IMG/VR virus record: IMGVR_UViG_3300025865_000006 | Location: 32,001 to 96,000 of that record | Length of the DNA stretch: 64,000 nucleotides | Source: a virus | Direction: 5' to 3' (one strand) | Shown here: positions 6,886 through 39,657 of the stretch, in pieces | Layout of the letters: every line of letters starts with the position of its first letter | How positions within the stretch are numbered: the stretch's first letter is position 1 | Translations under genes and position numbers: made by a program | Notes under the pieces: generated by a model | What the model saw: only the letters and a program-made list of their open reading frames with translations | What the model was told of the DNA's origin: nothing | Database searches by the model: none

Positions 6886-8084
6886 GTGGTTTAAAAATTC
6901 TGTGGGTGGGTGATTCGCCTACAGTCAACACAGGCTTTGGGGTTGTTAGTAAAAATATACTAAAACAATTACATAATAGGGGATACAAAATTACCTGCCT
7001 CGCGGTGAATCACCACGGAGAACCATACAATAGGGAAGAATTCCCTTATGATATTCACCCATGTGAGAGTGGCGGGGGACCAGAAGGGATATATGGTATG
7101 AACAGGTTGTGGCATATACTGCCCCAAGTTCAGCCAGATTTACTATTCCTATTCAATGACCCTTGGATTATTCGTAGTTACTTAGAGCATCGTCCTGACA
7201 ATATCTCTGCCCCCTACTTGAAGACCGTGGGCTACTATCCCGTAGATGCTGGCCCAATAAAGCCTGACACAGCCCGTTTACTAAGCGAAGAATTAGATGC
7301 TCAGGTCTGTTACTCCCACTATGCCGAAAGAATTATCATAGAGGCAAATGATGGGAAGCGTCCAGATAATCTTCATCAAGTATATCATGGGGTAGATACC
7401 AAAGTTTATCGCCCCCTTAATCAACAAGCTGTTAGAGAAGAGTTAGGAATTCCCCTCGATTCGTGGGTTGTTGGAATGGTAGCAAGGAATCAGTATCGCA
7501 AGAGGTTTGATATCCTTATAAGTGCCTTCGCAAAGTTTGCCAAGGACAAGGATGATGCTAGACTATACTTACATACGGTGCTATCAGATGTAGGTTATGA
7601 TATCAACGACTTAATAAATCAGTTTAAGATAGGGGGTAAAGTCATACTTACACAAGGTATGAACTCTCCTGCTAAGGGTGTGTCAGATACCGAGTTGAAT
7701 CTTATCTATAATTCCTTCGATGCTAACGCACTGATCAGTCTTGGAGACGGTTTTGGACTTCCAGTAGCCGAGAGTATGGCCGTTGGATGCCCACAAATCG
7801 TAAGTGACCATTCATGTTTGAAAGAGTTAGTAGAGGGTCATGGCGGAATTACCGTTAAGAACGCTGCTTGGTTACTCCACACTGCCGGAATAAATACTTG
7901 GGGTGGGGTAACAGATGAAGATGATCTTGTGGCTAAGTTAGAGTGGGCTTATAGCCATAGAGATATTATGAGAAAGTACGGAGAAGAGGGGTACAAATTT
8001 ATTATGAAAGATCAATTTAATTGGAACGAAATAGGGGATAAATTCGATTCTATAATCAAGAATCTATTCCACATTATAAATTAG
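6882..8084 (+). CDS. Glycosyltransferase family 4 (GT-B)
   Basis: KILWVGDSP...TGFG; HGVDT; GMVARNQYRK; DGFGLPVAESMAVGCPQI (variant of the EGFGLPxxEAMAxG motif). Confidence 0.9.
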   Translation: MSGLKILWVGDSPTVNTGFGVVSKNILKQLHNRGYKITCLAVNHHGEPYNREEFPYDIHPCESGGGPEGIYGMNRLWHILPQVQPDLLFLFNDPWIIRSYLEHRPDNISAPYLKTVGYYPVDAGPIKPDTARLLSEELDAQVCYSHYAERIIIEANDGKRPDNLHQVYHGVDTKVYRPLNQQAVREELGIPLDSWVVGMVARNQYRKRFDILISAFAKFAKDKDDARLYLHTVLSDVGYDINDLINQFKIGGKVILTQGMNSPAKGVSDTELNLIYNSFDANALISLGDGFGLPVAESMAVGCPQIVSDHSCLKELVEGHGGITVKNAAWLLHTAGINTWGGVTDEDDLVAKLEWAYSHRDIMRKYGEEGYKFIMKDQFNWNEIGDKFDSIIKNLFHIIN

Positions 8085-8087
8085 GGG

Positions 8088-8894
8088 GTGAAAAGTATGG
8101 TTCAAGCAAAAAATATTTTAGACAGATCGGCGCAGTTTCAATGGGATAGTGATTCTAATTGTAAAAGCACTAATTGTCGCCCTACTTCAGAAGCTATGAT
8201 AGCAGGGTACTATAAAGATACACATATTTCTCCTAACAGTATGCGACAAGCTATGGGCTATTCTAGCTGTGGCGGAACAGATACGGTCCACGGAGTAGCA
8301 GGATTGCAGCATTTTGGTGTTACTGCTTCATGGGGGCAATTAACATCTGCACAAGTTATATCCAAGGTTAATCAAAATATTCCTGTAGATTTAGCGGTAC
8401 TGTATAGCAAGATTCCAAGAAGCTATGTACAGGATACAGGTTTCTATGGACTACATTCAGTAGTCGCGTGTAAAAGGGCACTCTCAGGAACAACATATGG
8501 GTTGTTTGTTCGTGATCCTGATAGATGGGGTACGGGACAGGTAGACCACGTATTTTGGCCAGATAGTATCTGGATACCAGCATTTGCTGGTTCTAATTAT
8601 GTAGCAGTGTGGCCTAATAATACTAAGGTAATTACAGTAGCTACAGCAGCAAATTATAAGTTAACTATAGCTGCTAATACAAATGTAATGTTTGCAAGTT
8701 TAGGTACAGGAGGATGCATATCAGGGTGGTCTTATTATAAATGGGGACCAACTGCAAGTGCTGCACCAGCACAAGCACCTATAGTTAGAAAAGGATGCTC
8801 ATCTGGTAGCGCCACTACAGCTTACGTAACAGCGGGAGTATTCGCAGGAAAGCATGTAAGAATTGGTAATGGAACTAATATAGTAAAAATATAA
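8088..8894 (+). CDS. Putative endolysin, C39-like (papain-fold) peptidase plus C-terminal domain
   Basis: Q...NCRPTSEAM (Cys), HSVVA (His), VRDP (Asp); lies directly before a holin-like gene. Confidence 0.7.
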   Translation: MKSMVQAKNILDRSAQFQWDSDSNCKSTNCRPTSEAMIAGYYKDTHISPNSMRQAMGYSSCGGTDTVHGVAGLQHFGVTASWGQLTSAQVISKVNQNIPVDLAVLYSKIPRSYVQDTGFYGLHSVVACKRALSGTTYGLFVRDPDRWGTGQVDHVFWPDSIWIPAFAGSNYVAVWPNNTKVITVATAANYKLTIAANTNVMFASLGTGGCISGWSYYKWGPTASAAPAQAPIVRKGCSSGSATTAYVTAGVFAGKHVRIGNGTNIVKI

Positions 8895-34138: not shown

Positions 34139-34528
34139 ATGCCTAATCCGATTATCATTGATACCGTCTTCACTGGCGATGTGAATGACGATGAGGATGA
34201 TCCTTGTAATTGGAAGAATGTGACAATTCCCTCTAAGTATGAAGTTTGTAGTACTTGCCAAGGTGAGGGAAAGTCAAGCACATATCTTGGTGCATATACT
34301 CAGTCCGATATGGACGAGATGAGCGAAGAGTTTATTGAAGACTACTTTGCCGGTTATTATGATAAGCCTTGCACCGAATGCAAAGGAAATCGCGTAATCC
34401 TAGTTCCTGATCGTGAGAATGCTGATCCTGATCTATTGAAGGAATGGGATAAGCGAGAGGAAGAGAATTATCAGACTGAGCAGATGTATCGAATGGAGTT
34501 GGAGGCCGAATATGGTACTAACTACTAA
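34139..34528 (+). CDS. Protein with DnaJ-type CxxCxGxG zinc-finger motifs
   Basis: CSTCQGEG and CTECKGNR. Confidence 0.6.
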   Translation: MPNPIIIDTVFTGDVNDDEDDPCNWKNVTIPSKYEVCSTCQGEGKSSTYLGAYTQSDMDEMSEEFIEDYFAGYYDKPCTECKGNRVILVPDRENADPDLLKEWDKREEENYQTEQMYRMELEAEYGTNY

Positions 34529-35241
34529 GCAAACAGAGTTGCGTATCAATCAGCTTGTAAAGAAGACTCTGCTAATAGAGCGAGCTAATAAGGGTTTGGG
34601 AACCTTCCAAGATATGACTCACCCTATTGCCCAGTTTCGTACAATGATGGTTGCCCATAATGATGTGGTGGGTGTCATCAATTCTCTAATTGACTACGTT
34701 GAGGTTTTGAAGCAGCGAGTCGAGGAACTGGAAAATGGGCGCGGATAAGGAAGTTTGTTGGTGGGGAACATTCGATAATAGTCCCCGCGATCCCAAACAC
34801 TTTGTCCAAGTCGATTGGATGAGGTTTATTCATGGTGTAAACAACCTGCTAACGAATGAGGAAAATCCCGAAGAGGATACAGATTATTCTGATATTGGTG
34901 GATTTGGTTCACCTAAACTTTTAGGGAGGAACATTTATGATCGAGTCCACAAGAAGTTGTGGGCCGGTTGTGAGCAATACCCTTCCTTTACAGTTTACAC
35001 TGATAATGGGCGCAGGGAAGCATTCATTGAATGCTATGATCGAGAGATGGAAGAGATTGCAAGTCGCGTATTTGGAGAGCTTCACCCATGAACGTAGATA
35101 TGTGGTTAAGCCTAATCGATAGGATCATGTGGTTCGTCCTAATTGTTTCTGCGTTTTTCCTTGTGGGTATCGCAGCAGCGCGATTAGCACTATTTGTAGT
35201 TGATCTGCTGAAAGGTGCTCTGATATACTAATATAGAGCCA

Positions 35242-35316
35242 TCAGGGGCTAGTTTATGAGGTAAAACACCGGGTTGTGGCCCCGAAAATGGAGTTCGAGT
35301 CTCCTTCCCCTGACCA
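35242..35316 (+). tRNA. tRNA-His(GTG), atypical
   Basis: D stem GTTT/AAAC; anticodon loop TTGTGGC; T loop TTCGAGT; encoded CCA. Several stem mismatches and an A discriminator. Confidence 0.75.
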
Positions 35317-35331
35317 ATTTAGAAAGGGATG

Positions 35332-36829
35332 GTATGAAAAACAAAGTTGGAACAGGAATTCTCTTCCTACTTATTGATGTGTTTTGGTGGGTGGGGGCAG
35401 TAACAAGCTTTTATCAGGGGTTGTTCGTGGAGCATAGCAGTGATCTTATCATTCTAAATGGCCTTCTTGGTGCAATGTTTCTTGTTGCAGCAAGTTGCCT
35501 TACATTCGTCATTGCCTACTTTGTTGGTGAAGGCTTCAAAGACGAGAGGTAAATCGTGAGAAAACTTATAGTAGACGGAAAGGAGTATACCTATACTGTA
35601 GGTAAATCCTATGCGATTATCAAGTTTGAGGGCCTAAAGATCGCAACCATTCCCCTGTGTGATATAAAAGGTTCTTGGGATAACTTGGAACGTGGTCGAT
35701 GGAAGAAGACCCGCGATGGAATGGTTTTTCCAAGTGAGATAGTGGAATACATTAGAGAAAGGAAGTAGAGATGGGATGCTACATTGATCCCTTGGAAGGC
35801 ACCAAGGAACAGTTTCTTATGAAGCATGGAAAGGAAGTGTATAAGAAGGACTTTTCTTGGGGGACTAGGCCCGAATTTTGCCTTCCGGTTGTTTTGGTGG
35901 ATAACAGACAGTTTACGGCTGCCGGTGTTGCTTATTCTAAGAGAGAATTGGAAGCATTTACCGATCCAACCGATCTTCGTCCGAAGCGATACTTTTATGT
36001 TGCTCTGGATGATCTAAAGGATGTTTCTCCAATCGAAGATTATCTGAAAGACTAGGGAGTATAGTGCAAGGTATCTACGTCAATTATCGTCGGCCCAAGT
36101 CAAAGAAAGAGGTTGTTGCCGCAGTAAAGGCTAATCCAAGTAAGGTTAGTCTAGAGGCTACTTCACTTTTTGGCAATGAGTATGATGGACCTATTACCGA
36201 AATGCCTGTCGATAAGATGGTGTATGTTGTTGGTCCTGATCCATATACTGCGCGCAACTTTTATCTCAATCTGACCCGAAAGGAAGATGGAACATTCAAG
36301 GTGGCCTAATGCATGAATGCAAACTGATCAGCGTATGCGGTGAAATGCTTTGTGGCATGTGCTTTGCAGAGAAGATGGAGACTGAAAAACTGATTGCTCC
36401 AAAGCGTCCACCAATTGAGATGGTTATGATCCATAAGGTAGTTATGAGGAAAGTGAAATGAGCGATTGTCGGCACTGGTATCATGAATCGATTGACGATG
36501 TTGAGCATTGCAAGGATTGCAACGTCATTCTCGATGTGAAGCCTTTTTGGGAAGGCAAAATCACCATCGGAAAGTTGGAACATCTGTACGAAATTGAAGG
36601 TGAAGACTTTGATTTCAAGGCCCTGATTGAAGATCAGGTTGGGACAACGGTTGAAATTGATACTGTTAGGATTATGGACGGTCCAAATTATTGGGATCGT
36701 CCATACTTGGTGGTATTCACTGTTGGTAGGGCTAGGTTGACGGCAACAGTATCGGTAGCTAAGTCCGATCATTATGTTCCTACGGATCAGTTTTATACTC
36801 CCGCAGTTGAAGAGGAAGTGACTCAGTAA
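35332..36829 (+). other. Small hypothetical CDSs (~35332-35552 membrane protein, 35556-35768, 35771-36055, 36064-36309, 36458-36829)
   Basis: Operon packing with RBSs. Confidence 0.6.
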
Positions 36830-36836
36830 TAGAATA

Positions 36837-36977
36837 CGGCTAGGATACTCGGCTAGTACCCTGAAAGGCGTACGAGGGGTTACGAAAATGTCTAGCGAGT
36901 CGGTCAAGGTATAAACCGACATGATTCTACAATTGTTTGAAGTCGCACAATTGTAGAAAAGAGTCCTGATCTAAGCC
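36837..36977 (+). ncRNA. Structured RNA element (motif copy A plus 12-bp hairpin) upstream of a strong SD
   Basis: GTCGGT/ACCGAC and TTCTACAATTGT/ACAATTGTAGAA stems; shares sequence blocks with 37739-37848. Confidence 0.6.
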
Positions 36978-36994
36978 AAAAGGAGGTGAAAATC

Positions 36995-37126
36995 ATGGAA
37001 TATGTTGCAATGAAATGCGGCTTCTGCAAAGAGGAACATTATTACGGTAAGCTTGTCGAAAAAGGCAAGGAAGACGTAAAGTGCCCAAATTGCAATAAAC
37101 TTCTTGTGGTGGTACCTAAGAAGTAG
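36995..37126 (+). CDS. 43-aa zinc-ribbon protein (not in ORF track)
   Basis: Perfect SD AAGGAGGTGA; MEYVAMKCGFCKEEHYYGKLVEKGKEDVKCPNCNKLLVVVPKK. Confidence 0.8.
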   Translation: MEYVAMKCGFCKEEHYYGKLVEKGKEDVKCPNCNKLLVVVPKK

Positions 37127-37133
37127 TAATTAT

Positions 37134-37207
37134 GATGGCGAAGGTTAGGTTGGCTAGACCTAATCTATTCGATGCCGTAAGGATAGGTTCGAGTCCTATC
37201 ACTACCT
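37134..37207 (+). pseudogene. tRNA-like element / pseudo-tRNA
   Basis: Intact T arm ATAGG-TTCGAGT-CCTAT and D arm GGTT/GACC at canonical spacing. Anticodon stem is unpaired (loop ATTCGAT), acceptor 5/7 paired, no CCA. Confidence 0.55.
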
Positions 37208-37850
37208 TTAGGTAGGTCGGGTATGAGTAGCGGAATAGCCCTTCGAATAGGAAGCTAGAGCGCGAGTCCGAAATAAATATCTGATAAGATATTTATTAGG
37301 TTCTTGACTCTAGGCCAGATATTCCTTCCAGAACGGGAGGCTCTAGGCCAACGCAATTCAGTTGGTGGGTGAAAACTTTTCGGGTGCCGAGAATAAAAGC
37401 CGAAAGCCGGATAAGTAACCGGCAAATCGTTTCCTAGTTTAGAATAAACTAGGGCGGGAAATATACATTGCAGTCCCGGTATGTCAACCTGCAAACCGGA
37501 TAATGTAACCGGTACACAAATCTATCTGGTCGAAGGCTAGGGGGATTGTCCTAGCTTATCAGTGTTCAAATCCCGCTGATAAGAAGTTAGAGTTAGAAAA
37601 GACCAATCGCTGGATACGGAGAAAGCCGTGTACAATCCGTCTGCGTTAGCGGACCTGTTGTAAAACAGAGTTAGAAATAGGATGGTTCGTGACTCTAGGG
37701 CCAGAAATTTTTTACAGGCTGGATAACAGGTTTTACGTCTAGGATACTGCTCTCAATAGTCAGAGAGTAAAGTTATGCAATGCCTAGCGTGCTGGTAAAC
37801 TGCAAACGCATTGAGCGTGGTACATGTGCAGACGGATATAAACCAGACCA
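37208..37850 (+). ncRNA. Large (~640 nt) structured non-coding RNA candidate between tRNA genes
   Basis: No credible ORF; more than a dozen local hairpins plus long-range pairings (see findings). Confidence 0.7.
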
Positions 37851-37853
37851 ATT

Positions 37854-37941
37854 GGATCGGGTGAGCATGTTTTGGTACGCTCAGGTGACTGTAAATCACC
37901 CCTCTTAGAGTTTGTAGGTTCAAATCCTATCCGGTCCACCA
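37854..37941 (+). tRNA. tRNA-Tyr(GTA)
   Basis: Acceptor GGATCGG/CCGGTCC; GGTGA-CTGTAAA-TCACC anticodon arm; long variable arm; GTAGG-TTCAAAT-CCTAT; ACCA end. Confidence 0.95.
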
Positions 37942-37946
37942 AAGAT

Positions 37947-38226
37947 TTAGGTATTCGATGTAGATAATTATCGTTGGACGGAACAATAATGGCTCTCCGT
38001 GGTAGCACCACAGCGGGAAATGTGGCCGCTAAATTAGAAATAGTTTGGCGCGGTATAGCCTAGATAATTATCTACATGGAGTATCTAACTCCGTAAAGAG
38101 TACGATAGGGACGCCGATATTACCACTTGTCGTCAAGAGACTCGTGAGTCCTACCAATTGAAGTAGGTCGATGTGGAATCCCCTCACAATGCGTATACTG
38201 CTCGATAAGATGTGATATCGAGCATC
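37947..38226 (+). ncRNA. Two further structured RNA candidates (37947-38088 and ~38090-38226)
   Basis: Long closing helix ATGTAGATAATTATC/GATAATTATCTACAT; GAAA-tetraloop hairpin; downstream multi-hairpin unit. Confidence 0.55.
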
Positions 38227-38245
38227 CGATTAGTTGGAGAAAGCC

Positions 38246-39657
38246 ATGTCAGAAACTTGGGGAAAAGTTGATATACAGGTTTCGGGGGAGTCTGAAATTC
38301 ACTTAGTCCCTGTTTTGGACGGAGATGTATTATCTACTCATCAGCCTAGTACGATGTGCAAATGCCTCCCTGAGGTACTACAGGATAAAACTTGGGTAAC
38401 TAATAGTCGTGTTGTAAACCATAGAGAACCCGGTTGGGCTGGCTGTAACAAGGAAAGGGTAAATTAAAATGAGTAAACGTAGTGGTCTTTCTCTTCTTGA
38501 AGAGTTGAAGAGGGGCTGGATAGATATCGGAAGATATCGCTACATGTTTCGTAAGATTGATATGGAGACTTGGAGGGATAAGATTTGCCCTATCTGTAAT
38601 AAGGGCTTTACTAGCGAACCCAATTTTAGCTATGAAAGCTATTCAATGCATTGGGGCTGCTACGATTCAGATAAAGGAGAAAAATGGGTTTTTGACCGCG
38701 AGGACGGATACGATCTGCCCTTTAGCATCCCCCATCTACCCGAGGGTACAGATACAGATGATTTACCCTGATACGTTTATGGAGATTCTAAATGAAGCAA
38801 TTTCAGAAACTCTTTAGAGTCACATTTACTTGTGATAAATGTGCAAAAATGGAAAGCATGGAACTGACTGAGGGACAAGCAGAGGATGAGGGATATACTG
38901 GAAAGTGGTATTCCCCGCCCGGATGGGTGCTAGGGCATCTTGATGCGCGCTATACAGGAGATAGCATTCCTACATTACAGTTTTGCAGTTGCGACTGTAG
39001 AGATAGATATCTTCGAGCCTACATTACTGGTATTCAAGCAAAGTTCTTTATCTAAGAATAGGAGAAAGAAAATGATTCCGACGATTGGTAACAAGGTGGA
39101 TATCCTGCGTCATAGTGACGATAAGGGTAGGGATACCCTTACGCGAATTATGACCCCTGAGAAGCGTGCAACGCGCCACGCAAAGAGTATTCGTACAGCA
39201 AGCCATAAGCCACAGGCAAATAGCAGCGGCTATGCTTTTCGGAATTCTTGTCGAAGCTATGGCTGCACTTGTGTAAAGCATGGGTCAACGCGAAAGCGAG
39301 ACTGAAAATGAAAGAACTTTTGGTGGGCCTAGTTGTACTTAGTGTAATCTTTTTTCTCTTCGGAATGACAGCACTTACAAATAACCTTATATGGGCCTTA
39401 CCCCTAGTTCTTCCAACGGTATTCCTTATGGCCTACATGATGGGAGACACTATTTTGGATATTTGGAGGCATAGGTGAGTTGGAGGCTTTATTGCAAGTG
39501 GTGCAAGTACTGTATTGTGGTGGGTGATCGCGGAATGCGAGGCCAAGATATGGGTGCAGGGGTAGAGGCCGCTAATTATATGCAAGAACACATTGAAACG
39601 GCTCATCAAAAGACTTGGGATGAGTTTTGTAGAAAGGAAGAGAATGCTCAACGCTAG
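38246..39657 (+). other. Small hypothetical CDSs (~38246-38467, 38469-38771, 38792-39055, ~39072-39305, ~39308-39478, 39475-39657)
   Basis: Operon packing; several Zn-finger-like or membrane peptides. Confidence 0.55.

Follow-up and report, generated by a model that had tools for sequence, protein, structure and literature searches.

A cluster of non-coding RNA genes in a Ro60-encoding phage

We analysed a window of 64,000 nucleotides from the 117,070-bp record of an uncultured peat phage, and confirmed that a small folded RNA domain occurs in it twice, at genome coordinates 68840 (copy A) and 69739 (copy B). The domain belongs to an island of non-coding RNA genes of about 1.1 kb (Table 1) in this Ro60-encoding, tRNA-rich phage. 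Copy A lies between the stop codon of an ORF and a 12-bp hairpin, and copy B between the YrlA-like RNA Y-II, which ends 30 nt before it, and a tRNA-Tyr gene; a third copy, found in the related phage G005, lies between the Y-like RNA of that phage and a hairpin. Copy B and the G005 copy are each located 3' of a YrlA-like RNA with a GNCGAAG motif. The motif was regarded as free-standing in an earlier note based on the sequence of this window; this view had to be abandoned, with two of the three copies being the 3' neighbour of a YrlA-like RNA within the island.

Table 1 Features of the island (positions in the window).
Feature	Position	Strand	Remarks
123-aa ORF, function unknown	36458..36829	+	Stop codon 10 nt before copy A
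Motif copy A	36840..36920	+	Direct reading; MFE fold with P1, P2 and P3
Copy A, P1	36840-36844 with 36891-36895	+	Extra G-C pair 36839/36896 possible
Copy A, P2	Base 36847-36850 with 36877-36880; apical hairpin 36856-36873	+	
Copy A, P3	36899-36904 with 36915-36920	+	10-nt loop CAAGGUAUAA
Perfect 12-bp hairpin	36925..36958	+	Inverted repeat I4; 4 nt 3' of copy A; without U-tract
43-aa zinc-ribbon ORF	36995..37126	+	CxxC...CxxC
Y-I, YrlA-like RNA	37136..37323	+	UGGCGAAGG at 5' end, hairpin H1, closing GGCCAGAUAUU
Y-II, second, paralogous YrlA-like RNA	37526..37709	+	CUGGUCGAAGG ... GGGCCAGAAAUU
Motif copy B	37739..37848	+	Direct reading of the sequence
Copy B, P1	37739-37743 with 37783-37787	+	
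Copy B, P2	Base 37746-37748 with 37771-37773; hairpin 37750-37754 with 37763-37767	+	
Copy B, P3	37792-37796 with 37842-37846	+	
Strain-specific insert in copy B P3 loop	37799..37837	+	Replaced by four letters in contigs from runs X6 and X7
tRNA-Tyr(GUA), second gene	37854..37941	+	Encoded CCA, long D-loop; alignment with three tRNA-Tyr genes

The GNCGAAN0-1G motif near the 5' end, the marker of YrlA RNAs (PMC4201824 and PMC12135203), is present in both Y-I (37137-37144) and Y-II (37528-37536). In Y-I, one helix carries a T-arm, an acceptor-like hairpin and a D-arm-like module, and a helix H3 follows; G005 and the related sequence L063 match its first 42 nt without a difference. The H3 insert of Y-II is homologous to that of L063. 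Both RNAs are predicted to fold with minimum free energies (MFE) lower than those of all 200 shuffled sequences (z-scores of -3.26 for Y-I and -4.21 for Y-II; 0/200 as stable in each case). Searches with the Y-like 5' domain returned G005 only from viral_contigs and L063 only from the metagenomes. The tRNA-Tyr gene of the island was missed by ARAGORN and by Rfam RF00005, its sole Rfam hit being a weak one to tRNA-Sec (23.1 bits); it aligns over its full length with genuine tRNA-Tyr(GUA) genes found in this phage and in its relatives G004 and G005, and blastn gave matches to tRNA-Tyr genes of Bacillus phages. The 123-aa ORF serves as a synteny anchor to G005 and L063. Words are re-used throughout the island (direct repeats D1, D2, D5, D10 and D11), and CTAG is found 15 times in 1,404 nt, where windows of equal size average 4.6 over the genome.

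The Ro60 gene is located at genome positions 101828-103411, and at 7348-8853 in G005; the protein of this phage matches TROVE (2.8e-34) and also vWA_Ro60. The phage carries many tRNA-like RNAs; its Ro60, Y RNAs, tRNAs and mini-tmRNA would make up an RNA-surveillance kit. A conserved Ro60-linked array of Y-like RNAs, with six units in this phage, lies apart from the island described here.

Sequence and predicted fold of the motif

Both copies begin with the same 5' block, CTAGGATACT (36840-36849 in copy A, 37739-37748 in copy B), an exact 10-mer that occurs at these two sites only, in the window as in the whole phage record. In copy A, this block is followed by a variable hairpin with a C-TGAAA-G loop and by GTTACGAAAATGTCTAGCGAG, after which the 3' part reads TCGGT (36900-36904), 10 nt ending in TATAA, and ACCGAC (36915-36920). 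Copy B continues with a CTCTC/GAGAG hairpin (37750-37767) and GTTATGCAATGCCTAGCGTG, and its 3' part consists of CTGGT (37792-37796), a long loop, TATAA and ACCAGAC, which ends at 37848.

A gap-tolerant chained local alignment of the collinear blocks common to A and B scored 41.4, compared with 18.1±3.5 for dinucleotide shuffles of B (maximum 34.4; 0/1000 as high), and the B region was the best non-self match to copy A among 5,848 windows of 120 nt on both genome strands. Under stricter gap scoring the similarity was much weaker (27 vs 15±2.5; 2/1000 shuffles as high), and one unrelated genome window reached 28. Direct reading bore out the earlier note in all that it had said of the two sequences, and the shuffle test (0/1000 at 41.4) agreed with its claim that A and B are copies of one motif. 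The same holds for their placement: copy B ends 5 nt before tRNA-Tyr (CAATT, 37849-37853), and copy A precedes a zinc-ribbon gene. The compensatory stem changes that it had described proved to be real and in register: P1 closes with a G-U pair in A, where B has G-C, and two adjacent P3 pairs are U-A and C-G in A but C-G and U-A in B, with both sides changed.

The motif would constitute an independently folding RNA domain of the + strand. P1 (CUAGG/YCUAG), predicted as a stem of 5-6 bp, encloses the variable hairpin P2 and would lead into an asymmetric internal loop, with AU on its 5' side and 5-10 A-rich nt ending in AUG on its 3' side, which P2 would close; a linker CGWG would then connect to hairpin P3, whose 10-nt loop would have UAA at its end. 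P1, the internal loop and P2 were predicted in all three copies, as a prediction only and without covariation in P1. Standard pairs occupy 32 of the 33 pair cells of the three full copies, and sliding the partner columns by 1-3 positions reduced pairing to 21-42%. The unpaired blocks AUAC, AAUG, CGWG and UAA are invariant in 3/3 copies. Covariation was not significant, with 61 of 500 shuffles matching the observed score, because there are just three full sequences; P1, invariant apart from one G-U, therefore says little. Copies A and B were no more stable than shuffled sequences (z = -0.59, 49/200 as stable, and z = -0.84, 38/200, respectively), and the G005 copy was more stable (z = -2.42, 4/200; with its outer stem, z = -2.68, 1/200).

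No outer stem or long-range pairing common to all copies was found. A candidate outer stem P0 comprises 9-10 bp in G005, 6 bp in A (UAGAAU/AUUCUA) and none in B, and is thus not shared; in A it competes with the 12-bp hairpin and falls outside the MFE fold. Pairing of AUAC with the P3 loop in a pseudoknot would give 5 bp in A and 4 bp in G005, in registers shifted by two, and 2-3 bp only in B and in the form of copy B found in X6 and X7, and was dropped. Between the 5' ends of the Y-like RNAs and the motif, we found no conserved pairing partner. A third candidate copy in the window, at 37608-37655 (CGCUGG-AUAC...UUAGCG), was also rejected: MAFFT gave no alignment, the covariance model R1, built from the three full copies, gave no match with filters off, the strands sit in other helices of the Y-II MFE fold, and the X6 strain alters UUAGCG while keeping CGCUGG.

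Contigs from related strains in runs X6 and X7 provided natural variants of both copies. An insert of about 39-41 nt falls exactly within the P3 loop of copy B: in the X6 and X7 contigs 37798 is joined to 37838 with GACA between, so that four letters replace the insert and the P3 loop is 10 nt long, the same as in copy A and the G005 copy. The insert has an 11-nt word in common with 37486-37496 (repeat D11). In the X7 contig the P2 arms of copy B read CCCGC/GUGGG instead of CUCUC/GAGAG, with both strands altered and pairing kept. In the X6 strain, 77 letters without alignment at 80% stand in place of 36849-36926, the body of copy A, between flanks that are about 92-95% alike; the sequence of copy A is therefore not tightly held.

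Inverted repeats that occur twice in one genome could also mark a site acting in DNA, such as an origin, a recombination or packaging site, or a palindrome bound by a protein. The P3 half-sites of A and B differ within one genome while their complementarity is kept, which speaks against a DNA palindrome recognised by a single protein; furthermore, the G-U pairs in P1 and P2 of copy A and in P2 of the X7 variant make sense solely when the + strand is read, being A-C on the other strand, and spacing differs by tens of bases both within P2 and within the loop of P3. We consider such a site extremely improbable. These results support the view that the motif behaves as a selected RNA fold, unlike a chance repeat or DNA site. 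The earlier note's proposal of such a fold is upheld by the compensating helix changes, the loop insertion and the homologue in G005, whereas the covariation itself (61/500 shuffles) carries small weight.

Homologues and comparison with known RNA families

The search for homologues that the earlier note had suggested yielded one, the third copy, at the matching locus of the 106-kb phage G005 (L049 1803-1880; genome position 94313-94408), whose terminase is 65% identical to that of this phage. The 3' half of copy A (36886-36926) is 88% identical to the G005 copy, and the non-coding DNA around the motif in G005 is largely unalignable. R1 scored the three copies at 95.2, 92.1 (A) and 75 (B) bits, these same three copies being its training set. 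Overall, the motif was found in 2 of 29 records, and its distribution corresponds to one small clade, in which a genome has one copy or two; G003 and G004, both complete, are without it and without the entire locus, and L063 lacks the motif yet keeps the Y-like RNA.

In wider searches, the motif pattern returned 0 matches in the metagenomes and 0 in GTDB genomes, the 3' block returned G005 only from viral_contigs, and blastn against cultured phages gave tRNA-Tyr matches only (7 records). Single-query searches of viral_contigs with ORFs 36458-36829 and 38469-38771 and with the Ro60 protein gave no confirmed relatives. A looser pattern (CTAGGATACT...GTTAYGNAA) returned 16 loci in viral_contigs, which we regard as chance matches because the CTAGCG / TAAACC blocks expected downstream are missing from all 16.

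The similarity of the copies could be a neutral leftover of modular RNA pieces recombining in the island, due to recent duplication and shared blocks such as CUAG stems. The island is rich in re-used words and modules, with its direct repeats and CTAG excess; the X6 strain has not kept the body of copy A; A and B do not exceed shuffled sequences in stability; and L063 manages without the motif. Against this stand the copy kept by G005 at the matching position, despite a terminase of 65% identity and diverged adjoining non-coding DNA, the compensatory nature of the P3 and P2 changes between copies, the confinement of the sole large indel to a loop, and the invariance of the single-stranded AUAC, AAUG, CGWG and UAA blocks in every copy. 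On balance, a neutral origin appears fairly unlikely.

The motif is without a match to any described RNA family. Rfam 15 (4,227 models, among them every curated riboswitch and self-cleaving ribozyme) gave no cmscan match on copy A or B, neither in the whole window at gathering thresholds nor in 34500-39500 at E≤10, in agreement with the earlier note, which had recognised no known family; the G005 copy was likewise without a match in Rfam. The description of the motif was not found in Rfam or in the literature by a search directed at Y RNAs rather than at the motif sequence. A T-box-like reading, suggested by a UAC Tyr codon in AUAC and by UGGU/ACCA in P3 of copy B, was rejected; Rfam gave no T-box match, and A and the G005 copy carry CGGU/ACCG instead.

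A self-cleaving ribozyme, or a processing signal made of RNA only, could free a Y-like RNA, tRNA-Tyr or the zinc-ribbon mRNA, and the motif does lie at boundaries of RNA genes or cistrons in 3/3 cases, with conserved unpaired nucleotides beside helices; small ribozymes are, in addition, common in phages. However, no Rfam ribozyme model matched at E≤10, RNase P alone suffices for the tRNA 5' end 5 nt downstream of copy B, and the motif is confined to a single small clade, whereas known small ribozymes are widespread. We therefore find no basis for the new ribozyme that the earlier note had proposed as one possibility, in that no ribozyme model resembles the motif, and judge this explanation quite improbable.

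The motif might alternatively regulate in cis, as a riboswitch or as a put-like antiterminator that senses a ligand or RNA polymerase and controls downstream expression. The putL and putR sites of phage HK022 are antiterminator RNAs just downstream of early promoters that act on RNA polymerase; the present motif resembles them in having two copies per genome, a length of about 70-110 nt, two stem-loops and compensating differences, and copy A, within the zinc-ribbon gene leader, comes directly after a promoter-like TTGAAG-17-TAGAAT (36807-36835, 9/12 matches). No sequence relation to put is claimed, however, and no promoter-like site precedes copy B; the scan itself was not above chance, with 10 promoter-like sites in the region compared with 7.8±3.4 in shuffles. 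Downstream of copy B lies a tRNA gene, and downstream of the G005 copy further non-coding RNA, rather than an ORF, so that the layout of a riboswitch, an aptamer and expression platform before an ORF in all copies, was not found. Neither a shared terminator nor an alternative structure sequestering a Shine-Dalgarno (SD) sequence was observed; 36800-38250 contains no terminator-like site, and the 12-bp hairpin is not among such sites. Cis-regulation of this kind is very improbable.

Candidate protein partners and significance

We compared the motif with YrlA RNAs (RF02553; Chen et al. 2014, PMC4201824) and with Yrl1/Yrl2 of Thermus phage phiLo (PMC12135203). It could represent a Y RNA reduced to its minimum, or one module of a Y RNA, to which the phage Ro60 binds and in which P1, the internal loop and P2 form a stem-bulge-stem site serving as a second Ro60 site or a tether beside the YrlA-like RNAs. 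Ro60 is encoded by this phage and by 4 of 5 large relatives, and a Thermus phage Ro60 is reported to bind small stem-bulge-stem Yrl RNAs (PMC12135203). The motif is predicted to have the same general shape of stem, asymmetric internal loop and stem, and adjoins RNAs with the YrlA 5' motif and tRNA-like arms, two of its three copies being directly 3' of such an RNA. The Rfam consensus of YrlA has AUGC after stem 1 (AU(A/G)C covering both), whose 3' strand comes after an A-rich run ending in UG; in the motif, likewise, the stem leads into AUAC, and its 3' strand comes after A-rich nucleotides that end in AUG. The inner stem of the six Ro60-linked units is followed by (A/U)UACUUC and its partner by CGAC, and at the equivalent positions the motif has AUAC and CGWG.

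Several differences weigh against this assignment. GNCGAA/CGAA is absent from copy B and the G005 copy, two of the three, and copy A has CGAA in the 3' strand of the internal loop and nowhere else; the T and D arms of YrlA are missing as well, no T-loop or D-loop being found by reading and neither RF00005 nor RF02553 giving a match, the latter even at E≤10. Unlike YrlA, the motif has an additional hairpin P3 with a conserved 10-nt loop. R1 does not group it with the Ro60-linked Y-like units of the phage, its best score there being 7.9 bits (E 8.7), and homology to these units is not significant. The motif is on the same strand as Ro60 but distant from it, by 32 kb here and by about 86 kb in G005, whereas nearly all published YrlA genes lie within about 4 kb of Ro60 on the same strand (PMC4201824). 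Finally, Ro60 is clade-wide and the motif occurs in only 2/29 records, G003 and G004 having Ro60 without it. We thus rate a Ro60-bound Y-RNA module as somewhat unlikely.

The other candidate partner is the 43-aa zinc-ribbon protein. Among 16 related records its gene was found only in G005; an alignment search matched 1 of 233 stretches in viral_contigs (the one in G005) and 0 of 600 in genome_contigs, and only 3 other relatives of the protein were found among 5.8 billion proteins. The motif and the gene are both present in G000, G005 and the X6 strain, and both absent from L063 and the complete relatives G003 and G004; this co-occurrence rests on very few independent lineages, and G003 and G004 add little to it because the whole locus is missing there. 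Copy B is 610 nt from the gene. The AF2 model of the protein has a pLDDT of 85, and Foldseek against PDB returned 56 rows at E≤10, all of them generic zinc ribbons, with none at E≤0.001. A PDB sequence search gave nothing significant, and the matches to Pfam (Pellino_RING only, E 0.009, below cutoff; no Com family) and PHROG (6417, 'translational regulator', E 0.018 over 15 residues) were not significant either.

Phage Mu offers a precedent in Com, a zinc-finger protein with an RNA hairpin in the mom leader. The resemblance lies in a tiny CxxC...CxxC protein encoded beside a structured RNA element in a gene leader, and in the label of the best, non-significant PHROG match. Several points set the present case apart: searches with the zinc-ribbon protein gave no significant similarity in sequence or in fold, the RNA element occurs two or three times and also beside non-coding RNA genes, and it is located in the leader of the zinc-ribbon gene itself rather than in that of a separate target.

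The analysis established the sequence of the domain and its duplication, its conservation in G005, compensation that is in register, the toleration of an insertion in a loop, its genomic context and its lack of a known family. The reading we tentatively prefer is that the motif is a protein-binding module of this non-coding RNA island, for which the zinc-ribbon protein would be the likeliest partner, because its gene occurs exactly where the motif occurs; the phage Ro60 would be the second candidate. The YrlA-like neighbours and the Ro60-encoding phage make a protein-binding or processing module the likelier function; accordingly, of the roles put forward in the earlier note (ribozyme, processing element or protein-binding motif), the last two gain and the ribozyme loses. 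The preferred module may mark or protect RNA ends, or may control processing or translation, within the island, and copy A may be the product of a duplication, now placed in the zinc-ribbon gene leader. Transcription of the motif and its effect on RNA fate are steps that we infer. None of the 10 runs listed for the stretch is an RNA run, an outcome that has no bearing on whether it is expressed. A bolder version, which we regard as distinctly unlikely, would make the motif a new class of phage RNA element working with the RNA-surveillance kit, either as RNA partner of the 43-aa zinc-ribbon microprotein, capping or marking 3' ends against host exonucleases, or as a new small ribozyme punctuating a non-coding RNA operon.

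The study of phage-encoded Ro60 and Y RNAs is just beginning, as illustrated by the structure-function work on a Thermus phage (PMC12135203). The present clade holds a second RNA island, with YrlA-like RNAs that have the canonical motif, an extra tRNA-Tyr, a zinc-ribbon microprotein and an unclassified domain. If this domain is merely a recombining building block, it would illustrate the modular evolution of structured RNAs, through loop insertion and duplication into an mRNA leader. If the microprotein or Ro60 binds to it, domain and protein would form a compact, testable RNA-protein pair, and would provide a handle on how a phage organises, processes or protects its own non-coding RNAs.

Sequence and fold of the two motif copies

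We re-read both copies of the motif, in which a helix P1 encloses a second helix P2 and is followed by a third, P3, and the sequences given in the earlier note were exact for copies A and B alike. The elements occur in the same order in both copies. The exact 10-mer CTAGGATACT has two genome sites only, namely copies A and B, and the best non-self match to copy A among 5,848 genome windows was the copy B region. Gap-tolerant alignment of A against B scored 41.4 (shuffles 18.1±3.5, with 0/1000 reaching 41.4); only a weak signal is left under ordinary gap costs, because variable inserts separate the conserved blocks.

Elements of the motif copies and neighbouring features (window coordinates; L049, locus of the related phage record G005; L063, metagenome contig)
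Feature	Position	Strand	Description
Copy A	36840-36920
Copy A P1	36840-44 with 36891-95	+	CUAGG pairs with UCUAG
Copy A P2	36847-50 with 36877-80	+	ACUC pairs with GGGU, hairpin-capped; AU between P1 and P2
Copy A return strand		+	UACGAAAAUG, from P2 to P1
Copy A P3	36899-904 with 36915-20	+	GUCGGU pairs with ACCGAC; loop CAAGGUAUAA; CGAG between P1 and P3
Copy B	37739-37848
Copy B P1		+	CUAGG pairs with CCUAG
Copy B P2		+	base ACU/AGU; hairpin CUCUC/GAGAG
Copy B return strand		+	UAUGCAAUG, then linker CGUG
Copy B P3		+	CUGGU pairs with ACCAG; 46-nt loop with UAUAA at its end
G005 motif copy	L049 1803-1880		CUAGG, AUAC, P2, AUAAAUG, CCUAG, CGAG, UCGGU, CAAUGCGUAA, ACCGA
Zinc-ribbon gene	36995-37126		43-aa CxxC...CxxC ORF
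Y-I	37136-37323		YrlA-like RNA; z −3.26
Y-II	37526-37709		YrlA-like RNA with GGUCGAAGG; z −4.21
G005 Y-like RNA	L049 1661-1795		single YrlA-like RNA; whole RNA z −5.72
L063 Y-like RNA	L063 132-415		single YrlA-like RNA
Second tRNA-Tyr(GUA)	37854-37941
Inverted repeat	37944-38091		29 nt, 86% complementary, around 90 nt; candidate structured RNA
Third conserved element	38100-38232; L049 2085-2215		AAGAGUACGAUAGG ... CCUCACAAUGCGUAYACUGCYCGAU ... AUGUGAUAUCGRGCAUCCGA

In a model-based alignment of copies A, B and the one from G005, 32 of 33 pair cells held standard pairs, and shifting the partner columns by 1-3 lowered pairing to 21-42%. Compensatory stem changes had been claimed from A and B, and the changes themselves were confirmed: P1 is unchanged across copies except for a G-U pair in A that is G-C in the other two, and at two adjacent P3 pairs B has C-G/U-A where A and the G005 copy have U-A/C-G. 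With three sequences, and 61 of 500 column shuffles as good as the observed covariation, this signal is suggestive rather than proof.

Contigs of related strains, from metagenome runs X6 and X7, provide independent support for the fold. Both carry GACA in place of 39 letters (37799-37837) of copy B, and the resulting P3 loop is 10 nt, AAGACAAUAA, as in A and the G005 copy; the long loop of copy B is thus a strain-specific insertion, placed exactly within a loop. The P2 arms of copy B in the X7 contig are CCCGC/GUGGG versus CUCUC/GAGAG, with both strands altered at two pairs and pairing kept, one as G-U. The G-U pairs of P1 and P2 are compatible with the plus strand only, the strand of all neighbouring genes, and it is hardly credible that the motif acts as a DNA site. 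On their own, copies A and B showed no stability beyond that of shuffles (z −0.59 and −0.84), which only the G005 copy exceeded (z −2.42). Where the body of copy A would lie, the X6 strain has 77 other letters, unalignable at 80%, between flanks ~92-95% alike; we nevertheless regard a functionless recombining module as an unlikely explanation of the motif.

Distribution of the motif

Rfam 15 cmscan returned no match on either copy, which upholds the statement that the motif belongs to no known family. At gathering thresholds the sole match was tRNA-His (35243), and a 5-kb scan at E≤10 added only a weak tRNA-Sec-like match (37855-37936) and one short chance match. The motif appeared in no paper found by a literature search aimed at Y RNAs. 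A ribozyme or RNA-only processing signal seems very doubtful, and a riboswitch or put-like cis-regulator highly improbable.

A terminase query yielded 28 related IMG/VR loci. Among the five largest related records, blastn with 36400-38300 revealed a matching locus in G005 only (105.7 kb; terminase identity 65%), where a homologue of the 123-aa ORF, a zinc-ribbon ORF, a structured RNA and one motif copy follow in that order. The covariance model R1, trained on copies A, B and the G005 copy, recovered these same three and nothing else in 29 records (two in the phage under study, one in G005), with zero copies in the other 27, complete genomes G003 and G004 among these; when filters were turned off, the highest score after these was 12 bits (E 0.9). 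No additional copy came from pattern searches in IMG/VR, JGI metagenomes and 185,579 species genomes, and in cultured phages tRNA-Tyr was the sole similarity to the searched region.

The surrounding RNA island

The source record is 117,070 bp (the window being its bases 32001-96000) with 29 ARAGORN-detectable tRNA genes, and its DNA is present in peat and soil metagenome runs. Its Ro60 gene, a 527-aa ORF (genome 101828-103411), matches TROVE (2.8e-34) and vWA_Ro60. After it come six Y-like units built on one scaffold, one of them with a sub-threshold YrlA match (30.9 bits); gene and units are kept in 4/5 large relatives tested. The scaffold (L018 3810-5000; L064-L067) comprises an outer stem, YAGUGNAG, an inner stem, (A/U)UACUUC, a variable insert, often tRNA-like, and a partner strand, and is conserved downstream of Ro60 in G001, G003, G004 and G005.

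The RNAs 3′ of the zinc-ribbon gene are a different family. A 42-nt block opening with UGGCGAAGG is identical in the window (37136-), G005 and L063, three phages with protein identities of only about 65-85%. The sequence GGCGAAGG fits the YrlA 5′ motif GNCGAAN0-1G, thought to contact Ro60 (PMC4201824); PMC12135203 describes a CGAA motif within a stem-bulge-stem. In the window, the following helix encloses a T-arm, an acceptor-like hairpin and a D-arm-like element, which is the YrlA order, and the 5′ ends of Y-I and Y-II pair with a conserved GGCCAGAWAUU block; GNCGAAG and this block occur in all four RNAs. Rfam YrlA (RF02553) gives no score on Y-I, Y-II or the G005 RNA, so "YrlA-like" describes the features as we read them and is no database annotation. 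At the helices that close them on the 3′ side, Y-I and Y-II contain a direct repeat, GGTTC(T/G)TGACTCTAGG (94% identity, 37299-37314 and 37684-37699), consistent with their origin by tandem duplication. Copy B starts 30 nt 3′ of the GGCCAGAWAUU block that closes Y-II, and the G005 motif copy 13 nt 3′ of the one that closes the G005 Y-like RNA. L063 has the Y-like RNA, which leads straight into the ribosome-binding site of the next gene; the motif and the zinc-ribbon gene are both absent.

The weak tRNA-Sec-like match marks a genuine second tRNA-Tyr(GUA) gene, aligning end to end with the ARAGORN-detected tRNA-Tyr of the phage and with those of G004 and G005. It encodes CCA and was missed by ARAGORN and Rfam RF00005, by ARAGORN probably because of its 12-nt D-loop, which has one U fewer in related strains. 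Its D-arm form is common to G004, closer to the main tRNA-Tyr there than to the phage's own (genome 6643-6728). The zinc-ribbon gene occurs among 16 related records in G005 only, a second listed match, in G002, lying inside a 529-aa frame and not being a homologue; among 5.8 billion proteins, the protein has three other relatives only.

Directly 3′ of this tRNA-Tyr lies the inverted repeat, and beyond it the third element, which G005 also has; its word CAAUGCGUA recurs as the loop of P3 in the G005 copy. Within the copy B insert, 37806-37820 is complementary to 38180-38194 of this element (I5; 80% over 15 nt, with a perfect core of 8 bp), and the insert has an 11-nt word, 91% identity, in common with 37486-37496 (D11), similarities that suggest that modules move about within the island. 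CTAG reaches its genome maximum in 36830-38233 (15 per 1,404 nt; genome mean 4.6 per equal window), and CUAG underlies many island helices, including P1, H1 and H3. In the X6 strain, 37262-37307 is replaced by 6 other letters and 37370-37491 by 34, the conserved Y-like cores still being alignable, which indicates that peripheral modules are swapped between strains.

Candidate role of the motif

In predicted shape, and in its AUAC and A-rich...UG flanks, the motif is similar to YrlA stem 1. That it is a minimal Y RNA, or a site for Ro60, is nonetheless rather unlikely: it falls short on the CGAA motif that defines such RNAs, on closeness to Ro60 and on model scores, and Ro60 occurs throughout the clade whereas the motif does not. 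The robust conclusion is that the motif is a small RNA domain that folds independently, is conserved in a narrow phage clade, is duplicated here and belongs to an island of non-coding RNAs. Each of its three contexts places it 3′ of an upstream RNA and directly before another structured element: 123-aa ORF, motif, 12-bp hairpin and zinc-ribbon gene for copy A; Y-II, motif and tRNA-Tyr for copy B; Y-like RNA, motif and hairpin in G005. RNase P cleavage at the tRNA would leave the upstream fragment with copy B at its 3′ end. Its unpaired blocks AUAC, AAUG, CGWG and the UAA of the P3 loop are invariant beside variable peripheral parts, a pattern that fits a protein-recognised element. From this pattern and the position before structured elements, we tentatively infer a protein-bound module, which may mark or protect RNA ends, or control processing or translation, within the island. 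Co-occurrence and adjacency make the zinc-ribbon microprotein the foremost candidate partner of such a module; Ro60 would be the second.

The motif is best placed among phage and bacterial Y-RNA-associated structured RNAs, rather than as a demonstrable new class. Known from only three full sequences, it is real and part of an unusual RNA-centred phage locus.
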